The notes under the pieces are model-generated. The model saw only the letters and a program-made list of their open reading frames with translations, had not been told where the DNA came from and did not search any database. Position numbers and translations under genes: made by a program. A DNA stretch of 57,988 nt from Patescibacteria group bacterium (lineage in GTDB: Bacteria; Patescibacteriota; Minisyncoccia; 2-02-FULL-40-12), in NCBI GenBank assembly GCA_038065855.1, contig JBBTQD010000013.1, positions 1 through 57,988 on the forward strand. The letters run 5' to 3'. This document shows positions 7,356 through 19,412 of the stretch, piece by piece. The stretch's first letter is position 1; the number at the start of each line of letters is the position of its first letter.

Positions 7356-8429
7356 ATGAGAATTCTTTTTTTCGGTACTTATAAACCTGAATATTCCCGG
7401 AACCGGGTTTTAATAAAGGGACTTAAACAAAACGGAGTTGAAATTTTAGAATGCCGTTCATCCATCAAGGGTTTTTTGGCTTTTATTGATTTGTTTTTTA
7501 AATATTTTAAATTCCGGGGGAAGTACGATTTTATACTAGTTGCTTTCCCGGGGCAGGAAGTAATGTTTCTGGCAAGATTTTTAACCCTTCGATTATTCTC
7601 AGGGCAAGCCAGAAAGCCGATAATTTTTGATGCTTTCACTTCTCATTTTGGCGGTTATATTTTAGATAGACAATATTACTCGCCGGAAAGTTTAAGGGCA
7701 AAATATTACAGGTTTTTGGATAAATGGTCATGCAGATTAGCTGATTTAGTGCTTTTGGATACTAATACTCATATAGATTTTTTTGTCAGGGAGTTTGGCT
7801 TATCGAAAGAAAAATTCAAAAGAATTTTTGTCGGCACCGATTCTGATATTTTTTACCCTCGAGACGGTAAAAAAAGTAATGATAAATTTTTGGTCCATTT
7901 TCATGGCCACTATATTCCACTTCAAGGAGTTAAATACATAATTGAAGCGGCTAAAATTCTTGAAAAAGAGAATATTTTATTTAATTTAATCGGCCGAGGC
8001 CAGACATTTGAAGAGGACAAAAAACTTGCCGAGAAACTCGGATTAAAAAACATAAATTTTATTGACTCGGTTTCTTATGAAAAACTCCCAGATTATATTG
8101 CTCAAGCAGATATTTGTCTGGGTATTTTCGGCGATAGTCCTAAAATAGATCTTGTAATACCTAATAAAATATTTGAAGCATTAGCTGTCGGGAAACCTGT
8201 AATTACAAGTGACACCAATGCTATAAGAGAGCTATTAACAGATAGAGAAGATGTTATTCTTTGTAAGGTTGCTGATACAGAGGACTTGGCCGGGAAAATT
8301 ATTGAGTTAAGAGATAATTTAGAGTTAAGATTGAAAATCGGCAAAAATGGGAGAAGTGTATTTATTAATAATGCTACCCCTAAAATATTAGGAAGACAAT
8401 TACTGGATTATATACAGGAACGGTTCTAA
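7356..8429 (+). CDS. GT-B glycosyltransferase (GT4/GT1-like)
   Basis: HFHGHYIPLQGVKYIIEAAKIL ... PNKIFEALAVGKPVITSDTNAIRELL, the typical C-terminal nucleotide-sugar-binding half. Confidence 0.7.
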   Translation: MRILFFGTYKPEYSRNRVLIKGLKQNGVEILECRSSIKGFLAFIDLFFKYFKFRGKYDFILVAFPGQEVMFLARFLTLRLFSGQARKPIIFDAFTSHFGGYILDRQYYSPESLRAKYYRFLDKWSCRLADLVLLDTNTHIDFFVREFGLSKEKFKRIFVGTDSDIFYPRDGKKSNDKFLVHFHGHYIPLQGVKYIIEAAKILEKENILFNLIGRGQTFEEDKKLAEKLGLKNINFIDSVSYEKLPDYIAQADICLGIFGDSPKIDLVIPNKIFEALAVGKPVITSDTNAIRELLTDREDVILCKVADTEDLAGKIIELRDNLELRLKIGKNGRSVFINNATPKILGRQLLDYIQERF

Positions 8430-12628: not shown

Positions 12629-12668
12629 CGGATTCCTCTTTAGGTATTAATTTAAACTTGCCATTTTG

Positions 12669-13847
12669 ATGAATATATTGGTTATCGGTTTTCCTTATGT
12701 CAGAGAGAGTTATTTAGAAACTTTCAGGTGCTATCCCAAAAAGGAAAGTGTGTTTTTTTTATTGCCGGAGGCCTGGAAAGTGAAGAAAGGCAAAGTAATT
12801 TTCCGGCCGCCGAAAGAAAAGAACATATTTACCACAAAAACTTTTTTTCATCACTCCCTTTATCCGATTATTGGCGGATCACTTAAAGGTTGGATGCCGG
12901 CAGTTCCTTTGTTTTTATTGAAAAACAGAAGAAAGTTTGATTTAGTTTATAACTGCAGCGAACCGGTTCTTTTGACAACTTTATATAATTCTTTATGGAT
13001 TAAGTTTTTCGGATTAAAAAATATAATTTTTTCGTGGGAGAACATTCCATATGAGCAGAAATTAAAAGGCATCAACCGCCTGATTAAAAAATCTATCTTA
13101 AAATTAAATATTTTATTTTGCGATGGCATAATTTGTGGAAACAAAAAAGGATTTGAGATTTTCAGAAAGACTGCAAAAAAACCGATGTCAATTATTCCAA
13201 TGAGCGGGGTAGACACGAATTTTTTTGTACCTGCTGAAAAAAGCGGCAAAGCCCGATTTTTTAAAGATATAAATTTAAACGATAAAATCGTTTTTACTTT
13301 TGCTGGAGCAATAGATTACAGAAAGGGCGTTCATCTCATATTAAAGTCGTTAAAAGAAGTTTTAATCGAACTGTCTAATTCTTTTTTTATAATTGCCGGC
13401 AGCGGAGAATACGAAAAAGAAATTGACGGTTTGATAGAAAAACTGGGATTAAAAAATTATGTTTTGAGGGTTTCATGGCTGAACCAATCAGAGCTTAAAG
13501 AACTTTTATCGGTTTCCGACGTGTTTTTATATCCCAGCCTGCCTTTTAAAGGCTGGGAAGAACAATTCGGCTATTCAATGGCCGAGGCCTCGCTTATGGA
13601 GCTTCCTATAATATCCACCCGTTCCGGCTCAATAGAAGACGTAGTAAAAGACAATCATACGGGAATTTTAATAAAACCGGACAATGCAGAAGAACTTAAA
13701 AACGCTATGATTAAATTGGGTAATGACCGAAATCTAAGAAATTTATTAGGCAAAGAGGGTAGAGAATATATAGTTGAGAATTTCAGCCACAAAGTTATTG
13801 CCGAGAAATTTTATAAATTCTTTGAAAGTTTCAATTTTAAAACATGA
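12669..13847 (+). CDS. GT4 glycosyltransferase
   Basis: FTFAGAIDYRKGVHLILKS...; EQFGYSMAEASLMELPIISTRSGSIEDVV (EX7E region). I prefer the ATG at 12669 over the listed TTG at 12666. Confidence 0.8.
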   Translation: MNILVIGFPYVRESYLETFRCYPKKESVFFLLPEAWKVKKGKVIFRPPKEKNIFTTKTFFHHSLYPIIGGSLKGWMPAVPLFLLKNRRKFDLVYNCSEPVLLTTLYNSLWIKFFGLKNIIFSWENIPYEQKLKGINRLIKKSILKLNILFCDGIICGNKKGFEIFRKTAKKPMSIIPMSGVDTNFFVPAEKSGKARFFKDINLNDKIVFTFAGAIDYRKGVHLILKSLKEVLIELSNSFFIIAGSGEYEKEIDGLIEKLGLKNYVLRVSWLNQSELKELLSVSDVFLYPSLPFKGWEEQFGYSMAEASLMELPIISTRSGSIEDVVKDNHTGILIKPDNAEELKNAMIKLGNDRNLRNLLGKEGREYIVENFSHKVIAEKFYKFFESFNFKT

Positions 13848-15025
13848 AAATGATTTATATTTCCAACCAACGCCTTCCGACGGAGAAAGCATATGGAGTC
13901 CAGATTGCCAAGATGTGCGAGGTTTTTGGCAGTTTGGGATTGGATGTTTTTTTAATCGCGCCATACAGAATAAGCAGAATAAAAAATAATTTATTTGAAT
14001 ACTACGGCGTCAAAATCAATTTTAAGTTCAAAAAGATTTTTTCTCCTGATTTTTATTTGCTGGGCAAATTAAATTGGGTTGCTTTTCAAATTAAGAATTT
14101 TATTTCCACCGTCATTTTAGTAATTTATGTTTTAGTTCAGAAATCGGACATTATTTATTCCCGCGATGAACTGCCTTTGTATTTATTAAGTTTTTTTAAA
14201 AAAAATATATTTTTTGAGCTCCACAAATTTTCCAAAAGAAAAAAGATGTTTTACAGAAGATTTAAAAAATTAAACCTTAAAATTATAGTTATTTCCAAAG
14301 GGAATAGAGAAGAACTTTTGAAACTCGGTTTTAAAGAAAACAATATAGCAGTTGCTCCCGACGGAGTGGATCTGGAGAAATTTTCAAATTTAGCGTCGGA
14401 TGACCCATTCGATAAAACTCAGGGTCATCCTGAGCGAAGTCGAACGGATGACAGATCAGCAATTCGGAAACAGCTGAATCTGCCCCAAAACAAGAAAATA
14501 ATCGGATACGTAGGCCAGTTAAAGACAATGGGAATGGAGAAGGGGATAGGCACGCTTATTAAAGCTTTTAAAATAATTAATCTGCAAAATAAAGACTTAA
14601 TGTTAGTGATAGTCGGGGGCAGAGAAGAAGACCTTAGGGAGTATGAACCAAGCGAAGATATTTTATTTTTAGGCCATAAACCATATAATTTAATTCCTTG
14701 CTACTTAAAAGCTTTTGATGTCTTAACAATGCCGTTTCCCTATAATCATCATTATGCTTTTTATATGTCTCCCTTAAAGCTTTTTGAATATATGGCGATG
14801 AATCGGCCGATTGTGGCCACCGATTTGCCGGCCACCAGAGAGATTCTTAATGAAAATAACGCCATTTTGGTAAAAGCTGATAGTGTTCAAAGTCTTTCCG
14901 AAGGTATAAAAAAATTATTGGAAGATGAAGATTTGGCTAAAAAATTATCAGAGCAGGCTTTTCAAGACGTTCAAAATTATACTTGGTTAAAAAGAGCTGG
15001 AATAATTTTGGAATTTATAAAATGA
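13844..15025 (+). CDS. GT4 glycosyltransferase carrying an in-frame palindromic insertion in the interdomain linker
   Basis: IGYVGQLKTMGMEKGIGTLIKAF...; SPLKLFEYMAMNRPIVATDLPATREIL. The linker between GVDLEKF and IRKQLNLP is about 20 aa longer than in the paralogue at 12669..13847. Confidence 0.75.
   Translation: MKMIYISNQRLPTEKAYGVQIAKMCEVFGSLGLDVFLIAPYRISRIKNNLFEYYGVKINFKFKKIFSPDFYLLGKLNWVAFQIKNFISTVILVIYVLVQKSDIIYSRDELPLYLLSFFKKNIFFELHKFSKRKKMFYRRFKKLNLKIIVISKGNREELLKLGFKENNIAVAPDGVDLEKFSNLASDDPFDKTQGHPERSRTDDRSAIRKQLNLPQNKKIIGYVGQLKTMGMEKGIGTLIKAFKIINLQNKDLMLVIVGGREEDLREYEPSEDILFLGHKPYNLIPCYLKAFDVLTMPFPYNHHYAFYMSPLKLFEYMAMNRPIVATDLPATREILNENNAILVKADSVQSLSEGIKKLLEDEDLAKKLSEQAFQDVQNYTWLKRAGIILEFIK
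14396..14455. repeat. GC-rich palindromic mini-element (nested inverted repeats) inside the GT4 coding sequence
   Basis: ggatgaccc (14398-14406) pairs with gggtcatcc (14422-14430). gtcatcc (14424-14430) pairs with ggatgac (14446-14452). About 50% GC in a gene of about 28% GC. Translates as DDPFDKTQGHPERSRTDD on + and HPFDFAQDDP on -. Confidence 0.7.
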
Positions 15026-15723
15026 AAATCATTATCATTATCCCTACTTACAATGAAAAAGAAAACATTGTTTCTCTAGCCCATAGTATTTTTGAACATC
15101 ATCCCGATGTTTCAATTTTAGTGGTTGATGATAATTCTCCTGATGGGACTGCTGATTTGGTTAAAGAATTACAGAAGAAACTTCCCCGGCTGGCCCTTCA
15201 CCAAAGATTAAGTGATAAAGGTTTCGGCAAGTCCTATATCGATGGTTTCAAAAAGATTATCTTCGATAGTGAATATGAAACAATAGTGATGATGGATGCC
15301 GATTTTTCCCATGACCACAAAGAGATTTCGGAAATGGTTAGAAAACTTTCAGAATATGATGCAGCCATAGGTTCAAGATATGTCCGGGGTGGCAGGATTG
15401 AGAATTGGAACTGGCGGCGCCGGTTTTTAAGCAGATTCGCGAATTTTTACGCCAAGACGATTTTAGGAGTGACGATTTTTGATTTGACCACCGGTTTTAT
15501 GTGTTTTCGAAAAGATATTTTAAAAAACATTGATTTGGATTCTATAAAGTCGGAAGGCTACGCTTTTTTAGTGGAGTTGAAGTATAAGATGTTTAAATCC
15601 GGCCTAAAAATTATAGAACATCCGATTATTTTTACCGAAAGAAGAGAGGGGCAATCCAAAATGTCTTTTAGGAATATTTGGGAAGCAATCTGGCTGCCAT
15701 GGAAACTAAGATTTTCAAAATAA
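15022..15723 (+). CDS. Polyprenol-phosphate mannose/glycose synthase (Dpm1-like GT2)
   Basis: MKIIIIIPTYNEKENI...ILVVDDNSPDGTADLV...MDADFSHD (DxD)...GSRY. ATG at 15022 forms an ATGA overlap with the upstream stop. The listed ORF start 14983 is an in-frame read-through extension. Confidence 0.8.
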   Translation: MKIIIIIPTYNEKENIVSLAHSIFEHHPDVSILVVDDNSPDGTADLVKELQKKLPRLALHQRLSDKGFGKSYIDGFKKIIFDSEYETIVMMDADFSHDHKEISEMVRKLSEYDAAIGSRYVRGGRIENWNWRRRFLSRFANFYAKTILGVTIFDLTTGFMCFRKDILKNIDLDSIKSEGYAFLVELKYKMFKSGLKIIEHPIIFTERREGQSKMSFRNIWEAIWLPWKLRFSK

Positions 15724-17390
15724 TCAAAGAACATTGGTTTGCAGTGATAACAGTCGTGATTCTGGCTATTTTGATGATTCTGCCGTTTTTTTATTTTCAG
15801 ATATCGCTTGGCGATGAATATAAGGGAATACTTAATCAAGTTATAGATGATGAACTATTTTACATGGCCAGAATTAAAGACGTTATGGACGGTTACCCGA
15901 CTTTAGGCAACGTCTATTTATTGGAACATAAGGATCAATTACCTCAGCAGTTGTTTTTGCCGGAATTTCTTCTGGCTCAGCCGCTTAAACTTTTAAACCT
16001 TGATATTATTCAGGGCAGAGTTATTTATAATTTTGTCCTGCCAGCTATTGCTTTAATTTTAACTTATTTAGCTTTTTACCTAATTTATCCTTCGAGATTT
16101 TGGGCTAGCATTTTCACCACATTTTTATTTTTCGGTCTTTATCTTTTTAAATTTACCAGGCCGGTTATCCCGCAATTTGTCTTTATTTTCTGGCTCTCGC
16201 AATTTATTTTTCTTTGGCAGCTCCTAAAAAATCATTCGAATAAAACTTTTATATTTTTAAACATTTTAAACTTTGGTTTGCTGTTTTATTTATATCCTTT
16301 TTACTGGACTTTCTATTTTGTGTTTCTGGCGATTTTAACGGCTGTTTATTTTTTTAATGATAAATTATTATCAAAACAGTTCTTAAAGATTTTAATCGGC
16401 GGGCTGATCATTGGTTCTTTATATTTTTATTTCACTTTTTTAGCCAGTCAGCTTCCAGAGTACAAAGAAACTTTGACCCGGCTACAATTAGTTTTTTCCC
16501 GTTCGCCTTCTGAAATAAAAACAGTTCTCCCGGCATTTATTGTTTTAATTCTAGTTAGCATTCTTTACCGGTTAAAGGCGATAGAAATAAACAGAGAGGT
16601 TTTATTTTTCATTGCCGGCATTATTTCAATATTCTTGGTTACCAATCAAAATATCATAACCGGCCAGAAGTTTGAATTCGGCCATTACCGCATGCTGGCC
16701 GTATTTTTTATGGTTTTTGTGATTTATTATTTATTGAATCAAGTTAAACTTTTAAACTTTAAACTTAAATTTCTTGCCGTTTCTTTAATAATTATTTTTA
16801 GCGCCTACGGCACGTACGATTATACTCAAAGGATTTTTAAAGTTTCTGAACGGGATATTTATATCCAAAGATACGGAGCGGTCTTTGACTGGCTTAATAA
16901 AAATACTCCTCTTGATTCAGTGGTTTATGCCAACGAAGAAATTTCTGAACTAATCCCTGTATATACCTCTAATAATGTTTTTTACTCACGCTATGCTAAT
17001 TTATTCATAATGCCTGATAAAGAAGCCGAAGAAAGGTTTATCCTTAATAATTTTTTTGAAGAATTTGATAAAGATTTTGTGATTAAAAACGAAAGAGCGA
17101 TTTTCGGCGTCAGATACATTGATCGATACGGCGATGCGGTTCAGGCAAATAAATGGCGGAGATTGTTAAGCCTTGGATTAAAAGATGAAATTCGTCTGCC
17201 TGAAAATGAAATTGAAAAAGTTTTAACCAAAGCCGGAGAAATTCAGATAAGCCCGCTTGATAAAAGCTTAAAAAAATACCAAGTTGATTACTTTATTTGG
17301 GATAAAAATAAAAATCCGAATTGGAAGCCGGAAGAGTTTAAATTAAAACCGGCATATAATTTTGAAAATATTTATATTTTTAGAAGATGA
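15699..17390 (+). CDS. Large polytopic membrane protein, GT-C-like by architecture only
   Basis: About 560 aa with about 12 hydrophobic helices and a ~180-aa soluble C-terminal domain. Immediately downstream of, and overlapping, the Dpm1-like gene. The start (15678 or 15699) is uncertain. Confidence 0.45.
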   Translation: METKIFKIIKEHWFAVITVVILAILMILPFFYFQISLGDEYKGILNQVIDDELFYMARIKDVMDGYPTLGNVYLLEHKDQLPQQLFLPEFLLAQPLKLLNLDIIQGRVIYNFVLPAIALILTYLAFYLIYPSRFWASIFTTFLFFGLYLFKFTRPVIPQFVFIFWLSQFIFLWQLLKNHSNKTFIFLNILNFGLLFYLYPFYWTFYFVFLAILTAVYFFNDKLLSKQFLKILIGGLIIGSLYFYFTFLASQLPEYKETLTRLQLVFSRSPSEIKTVLPAFIVLILVSILYRLKAIEINREVLFFIAGIISIFLVTNQNIITGQKFEFGHYRMLAVFFMVFVIYYLLNQVKLLNFKLKFLAVSLIIIFSAYGTYDYTQRIFKVSERDIYIQRYGAVFDWLNKNTPLDSVVYANEEISELIPVYTSNNVFYSRYANLFIMPDKEAEERFILNNFFEEFDKDFVIKNERAIFGVRYIDRYGDAVQANKWRRLLSLGLKDEIRLPENEIEKVLTKAGEIQISPLDKSLKKYQVDYFIWDKNKNPNWKPEEFKLKPAYNFENIYIFRR

Positions 17391-18076
17391 AAATATCAAT
17401 CATTATTCCTGTATTCAATGAGCGGAAGACCATTAATCAAATTATCCAGGCGGTGGAGCGGGTGGATTTAGGCCCGATTGAAAAGGAGCTCATTATCGTG
17501 GATGACGGGTCTACGGATGGGACAAAAGAAATCCTTGCCGGATTCGAGAAGCGCCACCGCGTTATCCATCAGCCCAAAAATATGGGCAAGGGAGCGGCTC
17601 TTCGCCGGGGCTTTCAAGAAGCGTCCGGAGATTATATATTAAATCAGGATGCGGACTTGGAATATGACCCGGCCGATTATGTCTTACTGGCCAAGCCAAT
17701 AGTAAATGGCACTGCGGATGTCGTGTTTGGTTCCCGCCATCTTGATCCGGCAAAAAATAAGTATGTGTATAAGCGCTATCTCTGGGGGGGATTGTTTCTG
17801 AATTTCGTTGTTAACGCGTGCACCGGTATCGGGATAAACGACATTTTTTCCGGCAGTAAGCTGTTCCCGCGCTCGGCCTTAAAGCGTATTTCCTTGACCA
17901 GCAACGGGTTTGAAATTGAAACCGAACTGGCCATTAAACTAGCGCGCGCCAGATACAAAATTTTAGAGGTTCCCATTTCATATAAAGCGCGCCGGATTGA
18001 AGAGGGCAAGAAAATACGCCCCATAGATGGTATAAAAATTCTAAAGGCCGCGATTAAAAGCCGATGGTTCGATTAA
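17387..18076 (+). CDS. GT2 polyprenol-phosphate glycosyltransferase (ArnC/Dpm1-like)
   Basis: KISIIIPVFNERKTI...IIVDDGSTDGT...QDADLEYDP...GSRH. GC steps from about 30% to about 50% exactly at the ATGA junction. Confidence 0.8.
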   Translation: MKISIIIPVFNERKTINQIIQAVERVDLGPIEKELIIVDDGSTDGTKEILAGFEKRHRVIHQPKNMGKGAALRRGFQEASGDYILNQDADLEYDPADYVLLAKPIVNGTADVVFGSRHLDPAKNKYVYKRYLWGGLFLNFVVNACTGIGINDIFSGSKLFPRSALKRISLTSNGFEIETELAIKLARARYKILEVPISYKARRIEEGKKIRPIDGIKILKAAIKSRWFD

Positions 18077-18089
18077 CAACTCACCATAA

Positions 18090-19412
18090 ATGGTTCAAAT
18101 AAAAAAACACAAACTCATTGCGATTATATTACTGCTTGGTTTTATTGCTACTGTTTCGTATGCGTTTTATTTTCATGTAAAGCCGTCGGTTGACGCCAAG
18201 GCCTATGATAGTATCGCTTGGAGCATAGTCCAGGGCACTGGCTATACTGAAACTACTAGTCTGTTGCCTGATTCGGCTATCGGTCGTCTCGGCCCGGGAT
18301 ATGAATTTTTCCTGGCGGCCATATATTGGGTTTTTGGCCATCAGCTTTGGATCGTCTGGATAATACAGTCAATTTTACACACTGCTTCCGCGTTCATTGT
18401 TTATTGCCTGATCCGCCGGCTCTATTTTAACGATAACGCGGAAAAATACGCGGCCATCGGAGCCGGTTTCTATATTTTTTTTATTGATCTTCTGGAGTTC
18501 CCGGCCATGCTTCTGACCGAGACCCTCTACCTATTTCTTGTGTTATCAGGGATTTATTTTGCTCTTTTAATGTGGGAAAAGCCCGCCTTGCGGAATGTTC
18601 TGACGACAAGCGCGCTTTTTACCCTTGCGCTTTTAGTGCGTCCGCCGGTTACTATTTTAATGCTGGTGGCTTTCGGGTTTTTGATGTCCAGACGCCTTTG
18701 GCGCTACGCGGCTATTTTTGCTGTTACGGCGGTGATTATACTTACGCCATGGACGGTGCGCAATTATTTAAAGTACCAGCGATTCATTGTTACCAGCGCC
18801 ATTCTGGGCTATGACGTTTGGGTTGGTAACAGCCCTGATTCAAAATATATCGGGGAATTAACCGCGACAGAAGAAATTGATCGTTATACCGCGGAAGAAG
18901 GCCTTTTTGCGGCGAATAAAAGAGGAATAAGGGAAGTGTTGAATCTGGCGCTCAAACATCCCTTGGAGTTTATCAAACTTCAGCTCGTCAAGACCTCCAT
19001 TTATTTCAGCGCCGCGAGGCCGGCCGCTTTCTGGTTTCATTTATCAGGAATTTCCAGATTGTTGACCATTATATTCTCCAGCATTTTTGCTTTTGTTATT
19101 TTTACGTTTGGGTTTTCCGGTTTGTGGATGTATATAAAAAAGCGTGATCTTATATCGCGGATGATGGTGCTAACCACACTGGCGGCGCCAGCCGGGATTA
19201 TTTGGATCGTGGCTGAAACCCGCTATCGGTACCAGATTTACCCGATGATGATAATTCTGGGGGTGTTGTTTCTCGCAGAATTATTAAAAGATTGGCGAAA
19301 ATATAAGACTACTATTATTACCGCAGCTCTTATTATCAGTGTTAATACAGCTTTTGATGTTATTTTTAATATTCCTCGGGTGCTTGAGAGATTTCATCGT
19401 CTATTCTTATGA
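18090..19412 (+). CDS. ArnT/PMT_2-family membrane glycosyltransferase (GT-C)
   Basis: 440 aa, polytopic. The first periplasmic loop carries DAKAYDSIAWSIVQGTGY, the D-x-x-Y...G-x-G pattern typical of GT83/PMT_2. Confidence 0.7.
   Translation: MVQIKKHKLIAIILLLGFIATVSYAFYFHVKPSVDAKAYDSIAWSIVQGTGYTETTSLLPDSAIGRLGPGYEFFLAAIYWVFGHQLWIVWIIQSILHTASAFIVYCLIRRLYFNDNAEKYAAIGAGFYIFFIDLLEFPAMLLTETLYLFLVLSGIYFALLMWEKPALRNVLTTSALFTLALLVRPPVTILMLVAFGFLMSRRLWRYAAIFAVTAVIILTPWTVRNYLKYQRFIVTSAILGYDVWVGNSPDSKYIGELTATEEIDRYTAEEGLFAANKRGIREVLNLALKHPLEFIKLQLVKTSIYFSAARPAAFWFHLSGISRLLTIIFSSIFAFVIFTFGFSGLWMYIKKRDLISRMMVLTTLAAPAGIIWIVAETRYRYQIYPMMIILGVLFLAELLKDWRKYKTTIITAALIISVNTAFDVIFNIPRVLERFHRLFL

Follow-up and report, generated by a model that had tools for sequence, protein, structure and literature searches.

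Intragenic, translated palindromic repeats are already known, as Rickettsia palindromic elements (RPEs) and as intragenic copies of repetitive extragenic palindromic sequences (REPs). The subject here is a 48-nt hairpin repeat at 14405-14452 of a 57,988-nt stretch of DNA, called the window, which lies in frame within the gene of a GT4-type glycosyltransferase. The window is contig C13 of genome G000 (514,712 bp, 97.8% complete, 41% G+C). Very short GC-rich hairpins without a recognisable transposase, the mobile G+C clusters and 'byp' elements, occur in the AT-rich mitochondrial genomes of yeasts, coding sequence included. The byps are reportedly bypassed by the ribosome, a result attributed to Lang et al. 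in 2014. Insertion sequences of the IS200/IS605 family are said, from work by Barabas et al. in 2008 and Guynet et al. in 2009, to use 4-nt guides, to leave no target duplication and to need a Y1 transposase. RPE-1 measures ~100-150 bp in the passages on Rickettsia palindromic elements that cite Ogata et al. (2000) (PMC3733652, PMC1779305). GTAG and CGTC REPs are 20-40-nt hairpins, often arranged as inverted dimers, located downstream of genes and sometimes inside open reading frames (ORFs); CGTC REPs are without a dedicated transposase (Di Nocera et al., 2013, PMC3733652). The Ssn nucleases, GIY-YIG proteins of 94 aa, cleave single-stranded DNA (ssDNA) beside hairpin repeats that flank their own genes, and are described as modulating natural transformation, not as spreading their own repeats (PMC11893778).

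The segment at 14405-14452 is probably one copy of a very small, gene-less and non-coding hairpin repeat that entered the GT4 gene at its inter-domain linker, and homology-seeded copying is a possible way in which it spreads. Relatives of it are found elsewhere in the window and genome, in other genomes of the order and across many phyla.

The hairpin segment of the GT4 gene

The segment is absent from all 18 of the 18 aligned orthologues, including that of genome G007 (87% amino acid identity). The G007 protein reads ..FEP----DDKSAIRK.. at the site. Its DNA reads ..AAATTTCGAGC CGGATGAC AAATCG.. (in a shorter rendering, ..TTTCGAGC CGGATGAC AAATC..), with one copy of the 8-mer, and G000 is longer by 48 bases, enclosed by the duplicated 8-mer. 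Among 1,609 database homologues the closest two measure 377 aa, i.e. 393 minus 16; one homologue, 83% identical, is labelled 'Parcubacteria group bacterium'. The exact GT4 protein recurs on several groundwater-metagenome contigs, Hainich groundwater (contig source ERZ1292627) included, and the segment is therefore no one-off assembly error. As far as the aligned sequences tell, 14405-14452 is an insertion gained after the split from the nearest sequenced relative. The linker had been described in the original prediction as ~20 aa longer than in the paralogous GT4 at 12669-13847; the extra length is 16 aa relative to the orthologues.

The layout of the insert is T - arm B - T' - arm A' - T, with arms of ~19 nt each that carry the motif TTCGA-N4-6-CTCAGG. 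The letters of 14397-14452 are CGGATGAC-CCATTCGATAAAACTCAGG-GTCAT-CCTGAGCGAAGTCGAACGG-ATGAC. The features are as follows.

13844-15025, + strand: gene of a GT4-type (GT-B fold) glycosyltransferase, 393 aa, from the ORF list, with Pfam matches PF00534, PF13439, PF13692 and PF13524 and an AlphaFold mean predicted local distance difference test (pLDDT) score of 90.7.
14397-14404, + strand: T1, the pre-existing target copy CGGATGAC, one member of the direct repeat; in the G000/G007 DNA alignment exactly one copy stands at the empty site of G007.
14405-14423, + strand: arm B, CCATTCGATAAAACTCAGG, the forward unit of TTCGA-N4-6-CTCAGG, conserved over 25 double elements from 17 genomes.
14424-14428, + strand: centre T', GTCAT (GGGTCATCC with the closing pairs), complementary to T1 and T2 by the inverted repeats and the covariation test.
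14429-14447, + strand: arm A', CCTGAGCGAAGTCGAACGG, the inverted motif unit, identical to the reverse complement of arm B in 13 of its 19 positions.
14445-14452, + strand: T2, the second CGGATGAC, whose first 3 nt overlap the end of arm A', from the repeat search and the G000/G007 alignment.
14405-14452, + strand: net insertion of 48 nt = 16 codons, DDPFDKTQGHPERSRT or an equivalent register, from the orthologue comparison and from pLDDT below 50 at residues 185-201 only.

The inverted repeats are nested, at the places predicted: a 9-bp pair joins GGATGACCC (14398-14406) to GGGTCATCC (14422-14430), and a 7-bp pair joins GTCATCC (14424-14430) to GGATGAC (14446-14452). The 8-nt direct repeat CGGATGAC at 14397-14404 and 14445-14452, with a spacing of 48 nt, had been overlooked. 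The ATGAC part of T2 (14448-14452) is the portion common to other copies. The frame is preserved through the 393-aa ORF, as had been stated. Translation across the element gives ..SDDPFDKTQGHPERSRTDDR.., in a longer stretch ..SNLASDDPFDKTQGHPERSRTDDRSAIRK..; peptides expected from the translated insert are FSNLASDDPFDK and TQGHPER. Four of the six reading frames of the 48-nt insert are stop-free. The G+C content of the insert is 50%, in line with the earlier estimate; that of the GT4 gene is 33.8% by measurement, in place of the ~28% first given.

An ancestral linker or a chance palindrome, with no insertion event, has a negligible probability. The sole point in its favour is that perfect 9-bp inverted repeats with 3-20-nt loops are common in the window (48, vs ~6 in base-shuffled sequence). 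The T/T'/T triple, searched as 7-mers, occurs once in the window vs 0-1 times in each of 20 shuffles. This reading is ruled out by the 18 orthologues without the segment, by the clean junction with its 8-nt direct repeat and by membership of a family whose covariation is significant; that the closest two database homologues are 16 aa shorter also speaks against it. The original prediction had set against itself a linker shared by orthologues together with a lack of further copies; the orthologues are without the segment and more copies exist.

The AlphaFold2 model, built from a 19-sequence alignment, has a predicted template modelling score (pTM) of 0.88, and both Rossmann-like halves are intact in it. 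The insert (residues 185-201) is the sole segment with pLDDT below 50, and is modelled as disordered coil between helices 177-181 and 202-210, in agreement with the tolerated surface loop first proposed. The simplest reading of the model is a tolerated disordered surface loop, with the remaining fold predicted to be unaffected. The insert is most likely functionless for the cell.

The host gene sits within a cluster of glycan-synthesis genes. An upstream GT4 paralogue (12666-13847) overlaps it by 4 nt. A downstream GT2-family gene (14983-15723) overlaps it by ~43 nt if the TTG start at 14983 is used. The three genes form a tightly packed glycan-synthesis operon.

The repeat family and its architecture

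The exact 16-mer core is present in a single copy in G000. A search for the exact core is misleading, because diverged family members are found by short-word BLAST and motif searches; the genome search proposed earlier thus returns one exact core and several diverged copies. The pattern TTCGA-N4-6-CTCAG(G) has 14 matches in G000, vs ~2.5 expected and 4 for the reversed control pattern. Across 41 relatives ~230 matches are counted, vs ~30 for the control, with a range of 0-20 per genome. A sequence-only covariance model of the double element has matches in 68 of 105 genomes of the order. Family copies occupy unrelated genes, in several frames and on both strands, and intergenic sites. In-frame copies of G000 relative to G007 are found in rpiB (+18 nt, ..SPSTSSGQAG..), in prfB (+24 nt, ..DDPSTSLGQ..) and in a histidyl-tRNA synthetase-like gene (+27 nt, ..SSTGSGQGG..). 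Between the stop of prfB and the start of ftsE in G000, one double element takes up the gap.

The GT4 copy had been taken for the only one in the window. Further units are located as follows.

7585-7608, + strand: single unit CCCTTCGATTATTCTCAGGGCAAG, in frame (..TLRLFSGQARK..) in the glycosyltransferase gene 7356-8429; G007 has a copy at the same site.
18064-18093, + strand: related unit ATGG-TTCGATTAACAACTCA-CCAT-AA-ATGG, covering the points where ORF 17387-18076 stops and ORF 18090-19412 starts.

The unit at 7585-7608 is shared by G007 with ~5 substitutions and is therefore an older insertion. The G007 site orthologous to 18064-18093 holds an extra double element of 45-48 nt, for which the window is the empty site.

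The architecture was parsed in 25 full-length double elements from 17 genomes, which have 18 distinct centres. The arms are conserved: arm B approximates CCRTTCGAYAAAACTCAGG and arm A' approximates CCTGAGCGAAGYCGAAYGG. T and T' vary between copies. The commonest type is ATGAC/GTCAT; other T types are ATTGAC, GTTGAC, ATAAC, ATTAAC, ATCAAC, GGCGGC and CGAC or GTCG, found in both orientations relative to the arms. Within each copy T1, T2 and the complement of T' agree, with a T' of 4-7 nt. Mean stem lengths are 6.5 and 5.5 bp with a copy's own flanks and 4.0 and 1.7 bp with the flanks of other copies; the observed stem total is 300 vs 149 +/- 11 on permutation, and 0 of 10,000 permutations reach 300. 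Two internal base pairs that close hairpin 2 co-vary as CC:GG, GG:CC, AC:GT and GC:GC. These pairs lie inside the element, and the hairpin itself is therefore under constraint. Many T's hold TGA, TAA or an ATGA stop/start overlap, so that insertion there keeps both neighbouring genes intact. Recurrence of ATGAC-type stems in many genomes and phyla favours an element-borne centre that chooses matching targets, whereas the GGCGGC and CGAC/GTCG variants favour a centre derived from the target.

The compensatory changes that preserve the hairpin in the family also count for an insert that works in place, as a regulatory or stabilising hairpin of the mRNA, as a selected flexible linker or as a gap bypassed by the ribosome between identical GAT GAC codon pairs. 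Matching codons do flank the 48-nt hairpin, an arrangement loosely like that of phage T4 gene 60 and of the mitochondrial 'byp' elements. Bypass is needless in a stop-free insert that keeps the frame. Compared with shuffled sequence, folding is a little better on the - strand (z = -2.49) but unexceptional on the + (sense) strand (z = -1.84); both scores are modest, and the RNA structure that had been offered as an alternative to a surface loop gains little from them. With copies distributed over unrelated genes, frames, strands and intergenic sites, and with all orthologues working without the segment, a function in place is very unlikely.

The core extends far beyond the order. Exact copies of the 20-mer CCCTTCGACAAGCTCAGGGC occur in more than 120 contigs of many phyla, against ~1 chance match expected in 596 Gb, and the 19-nt core in more than 120 viral contigs of IMG/VR; both counts are lower bounds. 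Phyla and classes with the 20-mer are Actinomycetota, Alpha-, Beta- and Gammaproteobacteria, Acidobacteriota, Chloroflexota, NC10, Armatimonadota, Saccharibacteria, Verrucomicrobiota, Planctomycetota, Chlamydiota, Bacteroidota, Campylobacterota and others. Cultured isolates that carry it belong to Microbacterium, Microlunatus, Sphingomonas, Sphingopyxis, Moraxella and Pelomonas. The dispersed short palindromic repeat that had been named for uncultivated bacteria is thus real, and is found in cultivated bacteria too. In those phyla the motif lies mostly within longer palindromes (for example CCGTTCGGGCTGAGCCTGTCGAAGCCC..GCCCTTCGACAAGCTCAGGGCGAACGG), sometimes in 24-nt tandem arrays. Perfect tandem arrays of the 20-mer core are seen in Actinomycetota CAVSUP010000003.1 (7515-7606, period 24 nt) and in a viral contig (4018-4082, period 23 nt).

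The peptide strings quoted in the original prediction (FDKLR.., HPERSR.., FDFAQDD..) are translations of the family motif. Recurrent pseudo-peptides of this kind (FDKLR, SLSKG, PELVEG, SGQA) are planted in protein databases by the family, which also inflates ORF calls. For annotators, a DDPFDK..HPERSR peptide is a junk insertion and no motif. Rfam 15 gives nothing relevant at E <= 10 in 14250-14600, and no Rfam match at gathering score was obtained at 16 motif-bearing loci from other phyla. Literature searches with the core DNA and its peptide translations found no paper, and searches on palindromic elements and in-frame insertion in the Candidate Phyla Radiation (CPR) found nothing specific. 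The repeat family and its architecture appear undescribed.

The G000 and G007 genomes are riddled with small palindromic elements. At the ftsE start of G000 (C30:21160-21215) there is an in-frame insert of another palindrome family, GCCACGCTTAGCGTGGC..GGGACGCTTAGCGTCCC, read as ..TLSVPNGHAKRGGNQ.. and absent from G007 at that site; a 42-nt copy of this palindrome type, 98% identical, is located at G007 C20:29826. At least 3 further small palindromic families differ in presence between the two genomes. A 30-nt double hairpin, TCCGCC..GGCGGATCCGCC..GGCGGA, forms several clean 30-nt insertions in G007; other presence-variable palindromes are CCCCCACACTCAnnnTGAGTGTGGGGG and CCTCCGAAGCTTTAGCGnAGGAGG. 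In G000 a tandem array of ~24-nt units TTCGACAAGCTCACTATAAATAG (C8:18990-19125) adjoins a tRNA gene and a LAGLIDADG-type ORF (C8:19508-20284), and a double element is inserted in one unit of the array. The 5' end of the 16S rRNA (G000 C22:16573-16595, TTTGATCCTGGCTCAGGATGAAC) resembles the motif with its commonest stem (TTCGACAAGCTCAGGATGAC) and shares an identical 11-mer with it, perhaps by coincidence.

Origin of the copies

The whole G007 assembly (545 kb) was aligned to G000, with a mean nucleotide identity of 73% over aligned blocks. Besides the GT4 insertion, a clean 24-nt insertion CCCTTCGACAGGCTCAGGGCGAGC is found at G007 C30:16814. Other length differences of the motif family between the two genomes are 12, 18, 27, 33, 45-48 and 47 nt. 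The direct repeat ranges from 4 to 8 nt between copies. Equal-length overwriting, in which the motif consensus takes the place of a native stretch, is seen at three sites: G007 has ALVLSLSKGW where G000 has ALAKALKEGW, G007 has FALSLSKGFD where G000 has FAEDLAKNFD, and the third is DPERSRG in rpiB of G000. Such overwriting of ~20 nt at G007 C14:9221 and C6:22008 (vs G000 C8:~30300 and C27:~15500) alters 5-6 residues of a conserved region. One of the genes is 2-hydroxyacid dehydrogenase-like; the second is presumably phosphoglycerate kinase-like, by the look of its motif. An insertion was rejected for rpiB DPERSRG, which has the same length in G007 and looks like an overwritten patch or a chance match.

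Target homology is graded. The empty GT4 target TCGAGCCGGATGAC shares 11 of 13 positions with TCGAAC-GGATGAC, the element's right end, a similarity that exceeds the 5 nt common to all ATGAC-type copies. The double elements at G000 C8:19019 and G007 C36:1335 lie in motif units with a likeness to their own arms; for the second, the window has the empty site, at ~18073.

It is quite possible, though not to be counted on, that new copies arise by homology-seeded, non-reciprocal copying from other copies. Such copying, in the course of replication or break repair, would use template switching or short-patch conversion with an ectopic copy as donor, and would be aided by hairpin formation in ssDNA. 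The direct repeat would be the microhomology for switching into and out of the donor. No cut-and-paste by a dedicated transposase would take part. Within genes, selection would keep only insertions of multiple-of-three length without stops. Variable junctions, graded target homology and equal-length overwriting are unlike the work of a fixed-stagger transposase and like template switching or short-patch conversion. If this mode of spread is true, even 0.5-Mb genomes would be open to colonisation by short sequences, and protein loops to remodelling, along a simple and general route.

Several points weigh on the other side. The direction of events is taken from outgroups only, at ~73% DNA identity; at that identity most junctions are blurred, and clean ones are those of the GT4 copy and two or three others. 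Template switching alone leaves the cross-phylum identity of the ~15-20-nt motif unexplained, and that identity argues for a sequence-specific partner, whether a protein or a vector. The constraint on the hairpin fits a hairpin-recognising enzyme equally well. A transposase supplied in trans by a phage or by DNA outside the sample may be involved.

A classical element of the kind of miniature transposable elements with inverted repeats (MITEs) or REPINs, moved in trans with a staggered cut by a transposase specific for the two arms or for the hairpin, would give inverted arms and flanking direct repeats such as those seen here. CGGATGAC would then be a target-site duplication, and T' would guide target choice as in IS200/IS605. 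In 25 copies, which have 18 distinct centres, T' and the duplicated target are complementary, and one change in a guiding loop would redirect the element and account for this three-way consistency; the near-identical copies in genome G054, at least 7 of them, suggest recent bursts. Those copies, however, belong to a composite repeat of 80-215 nt with a CCGCC..GGCGG hairpin and no ORF, inside which the double element lies at 7 or more loci, and their reading as seven independent fresh insertions was rejected. PF01797, the Y1 family that includes RAYTs, is absent from G000, G007, G003 and G018, of which G003 has 11 and G018 has 20 motif matches; the mean motif count is 5.4 in genomes with PF01797 and 5.3 in those without. 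A RAYT/Y1 transposase as mobiliser was rejected on this absence and on the independence of copy number. The direct repeat of 4-8 nt with homology running into the arm, the equal-length overwriting and the variable insert lengths also count against a transposase. No longer gene-bearing element with the same arms was seen in G000, in G007 or in the G054 composites, in the course of work that included no systematic search for one. A transposase-driven element is, on balance, unlikely.

A sequence-specific partner could also be a nuclease. The hairpins would then be cognate ssDNA sites of small stand-alone GIY-YIG nucleases, abundant in the order, on the model of the NTS/SRM repeats and Ssn nucleases known from Neisseria and further bacteria, with nicking near the hairpin that drives spread through repair, or with a role in handling ssDNA. 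Matches to GIY-YIG are found in 41 of 41 relatives, many of them in open frames of 80-130 aa, and genomes with more of them tend to have more motif copies (Spearman rho 0.42, p = 0.006); that this statistic is uncorrected for genome size or phylogeny tells against the reading. A motif unit is 20-270 nt away from at least 4 small GIY-YIG genes (G022:C13, G039:C2, G039:C1, G030:C5). Six loci picked regardless of proximity, on the other hand, gave degenerate motif-like matches only, with no above-chance count. The stand-alone GIY-YIG ORF of G000 (95 aa, C11:1902-2186) has no motif unit within ~500 nt. The SRM pattern HGTCWYN(0-2)YYVSBRHN(0-5)WNVSBRGN(0-2)RNCYNB of the Ssn repeats is unmatched on either strand of 14361-14490, and its 3 matches in G000 equal those in shuffled sequence. 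Membership of the SRM/Ssn repeat class was rejected on this sequence pattern. NCBIfam gives no family assignment for the small GIY-YIG proteins. A nuclease origin is quite unlikely, and the GIY-YIG link is a weak lead and no finding; the nuclease can nevertheless be combined with homology-seeded copying, as its trigger. The 95-aa ORF of G000 seems to carry an in-frame palindromic insert of its own, ..HNWHTASLKLRSTSEARYTK.., where relatives have a short loop.

A wider proposal, doubtful at best, joins these strands. The TTCGACAAGCTCAGG hairpin would be a pan-bacterial, phage-borne selfish sequence that spreads without a transposase, by homology-seeded copying in ssDNA, perhaps started by Ssn-like GIY-YIG nucleases. 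Its stems would be built or chosen for each target, it could insert into and overwrite essential genes, and a conserved partner that recognises it would be the reason for its identity in more than 15 phyla.

Comparison with known systems

RPEs are alike in habit, as far as the accounts cited above describe them: small gene-less palindromic repeats, in frame in working genes of a reduced genome, translated and tolerated, and also intergenic. Palindromic repeats in frame in functional ORFs are found here in the GT4 gene (+48), rpiB (+18), prfB (+24) and the histidyl-tRNA synthetase-like gene (+27). The present element differs from RPEs, in a comparison by description, in its length of 43-48 nt (single units ~20-27 nt) and in its Patescibacteria/CPR host; its core is letter-identical across phyla and its centre matches the flanking repeat. 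Formal RPE membership is unlikely, because the host is a groundwater Parcubacteria-type genome.

REPs are likewise short hairpins with inverted dimers and intragenic copies, and CGTC REPs share the lack of a dedicated transposase. In REPs, however, the stem is conserved and the loop has 2-5 nt, whereas here conservation lies in a 13-15-nt loop, with stems that differ between copies (18 centres in 25). A GTAG tag is missing, and the CGTC just upstream of the GT4 copy is not common to other copies in the alignment. REPIN/RAYT systems differ in that G000 has no RAYT gene (PF01797). SRM/Ssn systems share dispersed hairpins in genomes with ~90-aa single-domain GIY-YIG proteins, some of them repeat-flanked (Chenal et al., 2025, PMC11893778). 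The present element differs from them in failing the SRM pattern and in its weak association with GIY-YIG genes.

Terminal inverted repeats and a target-site duplication mark MITEs; the arms here are inverted (13/19) and an 8-nt direct repeat is seen, but its length ranges over 4-8 nt between copies and it runs into the arm. MITEs are 70-300 bp long and derive from an autonomous insertion sequence, whereas the element has 43-48 nt and no known autonomous parent. Internal sequence complementary to the flank and hairpins in ssDNA as the working form are shared with IS200/IS605, but only as a principle; those elements insert beside a fixed 4-5-nt target, while here the complementarity extends over 5-9 bp, the insert has a direct repeat and a Y1 gene is missing. 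The yeast mitochondrial elements differ in being organellar and of unrelated sequence, and in that byps are bypassed where the element here lies in a translated frame.

The family itself fits no named family, because its loop is conserved while its stems vary, because it has no shared tag and no RAYT, and because it is below MITE size without an autonomous parent. For the GT4 gene alone, the finding is ordinary, namely RPE-type tolerated in-frame junk DNA. The family, of which no description was found, is more notable than the single insert, with a core that is identical across phyla and in viral contigs.

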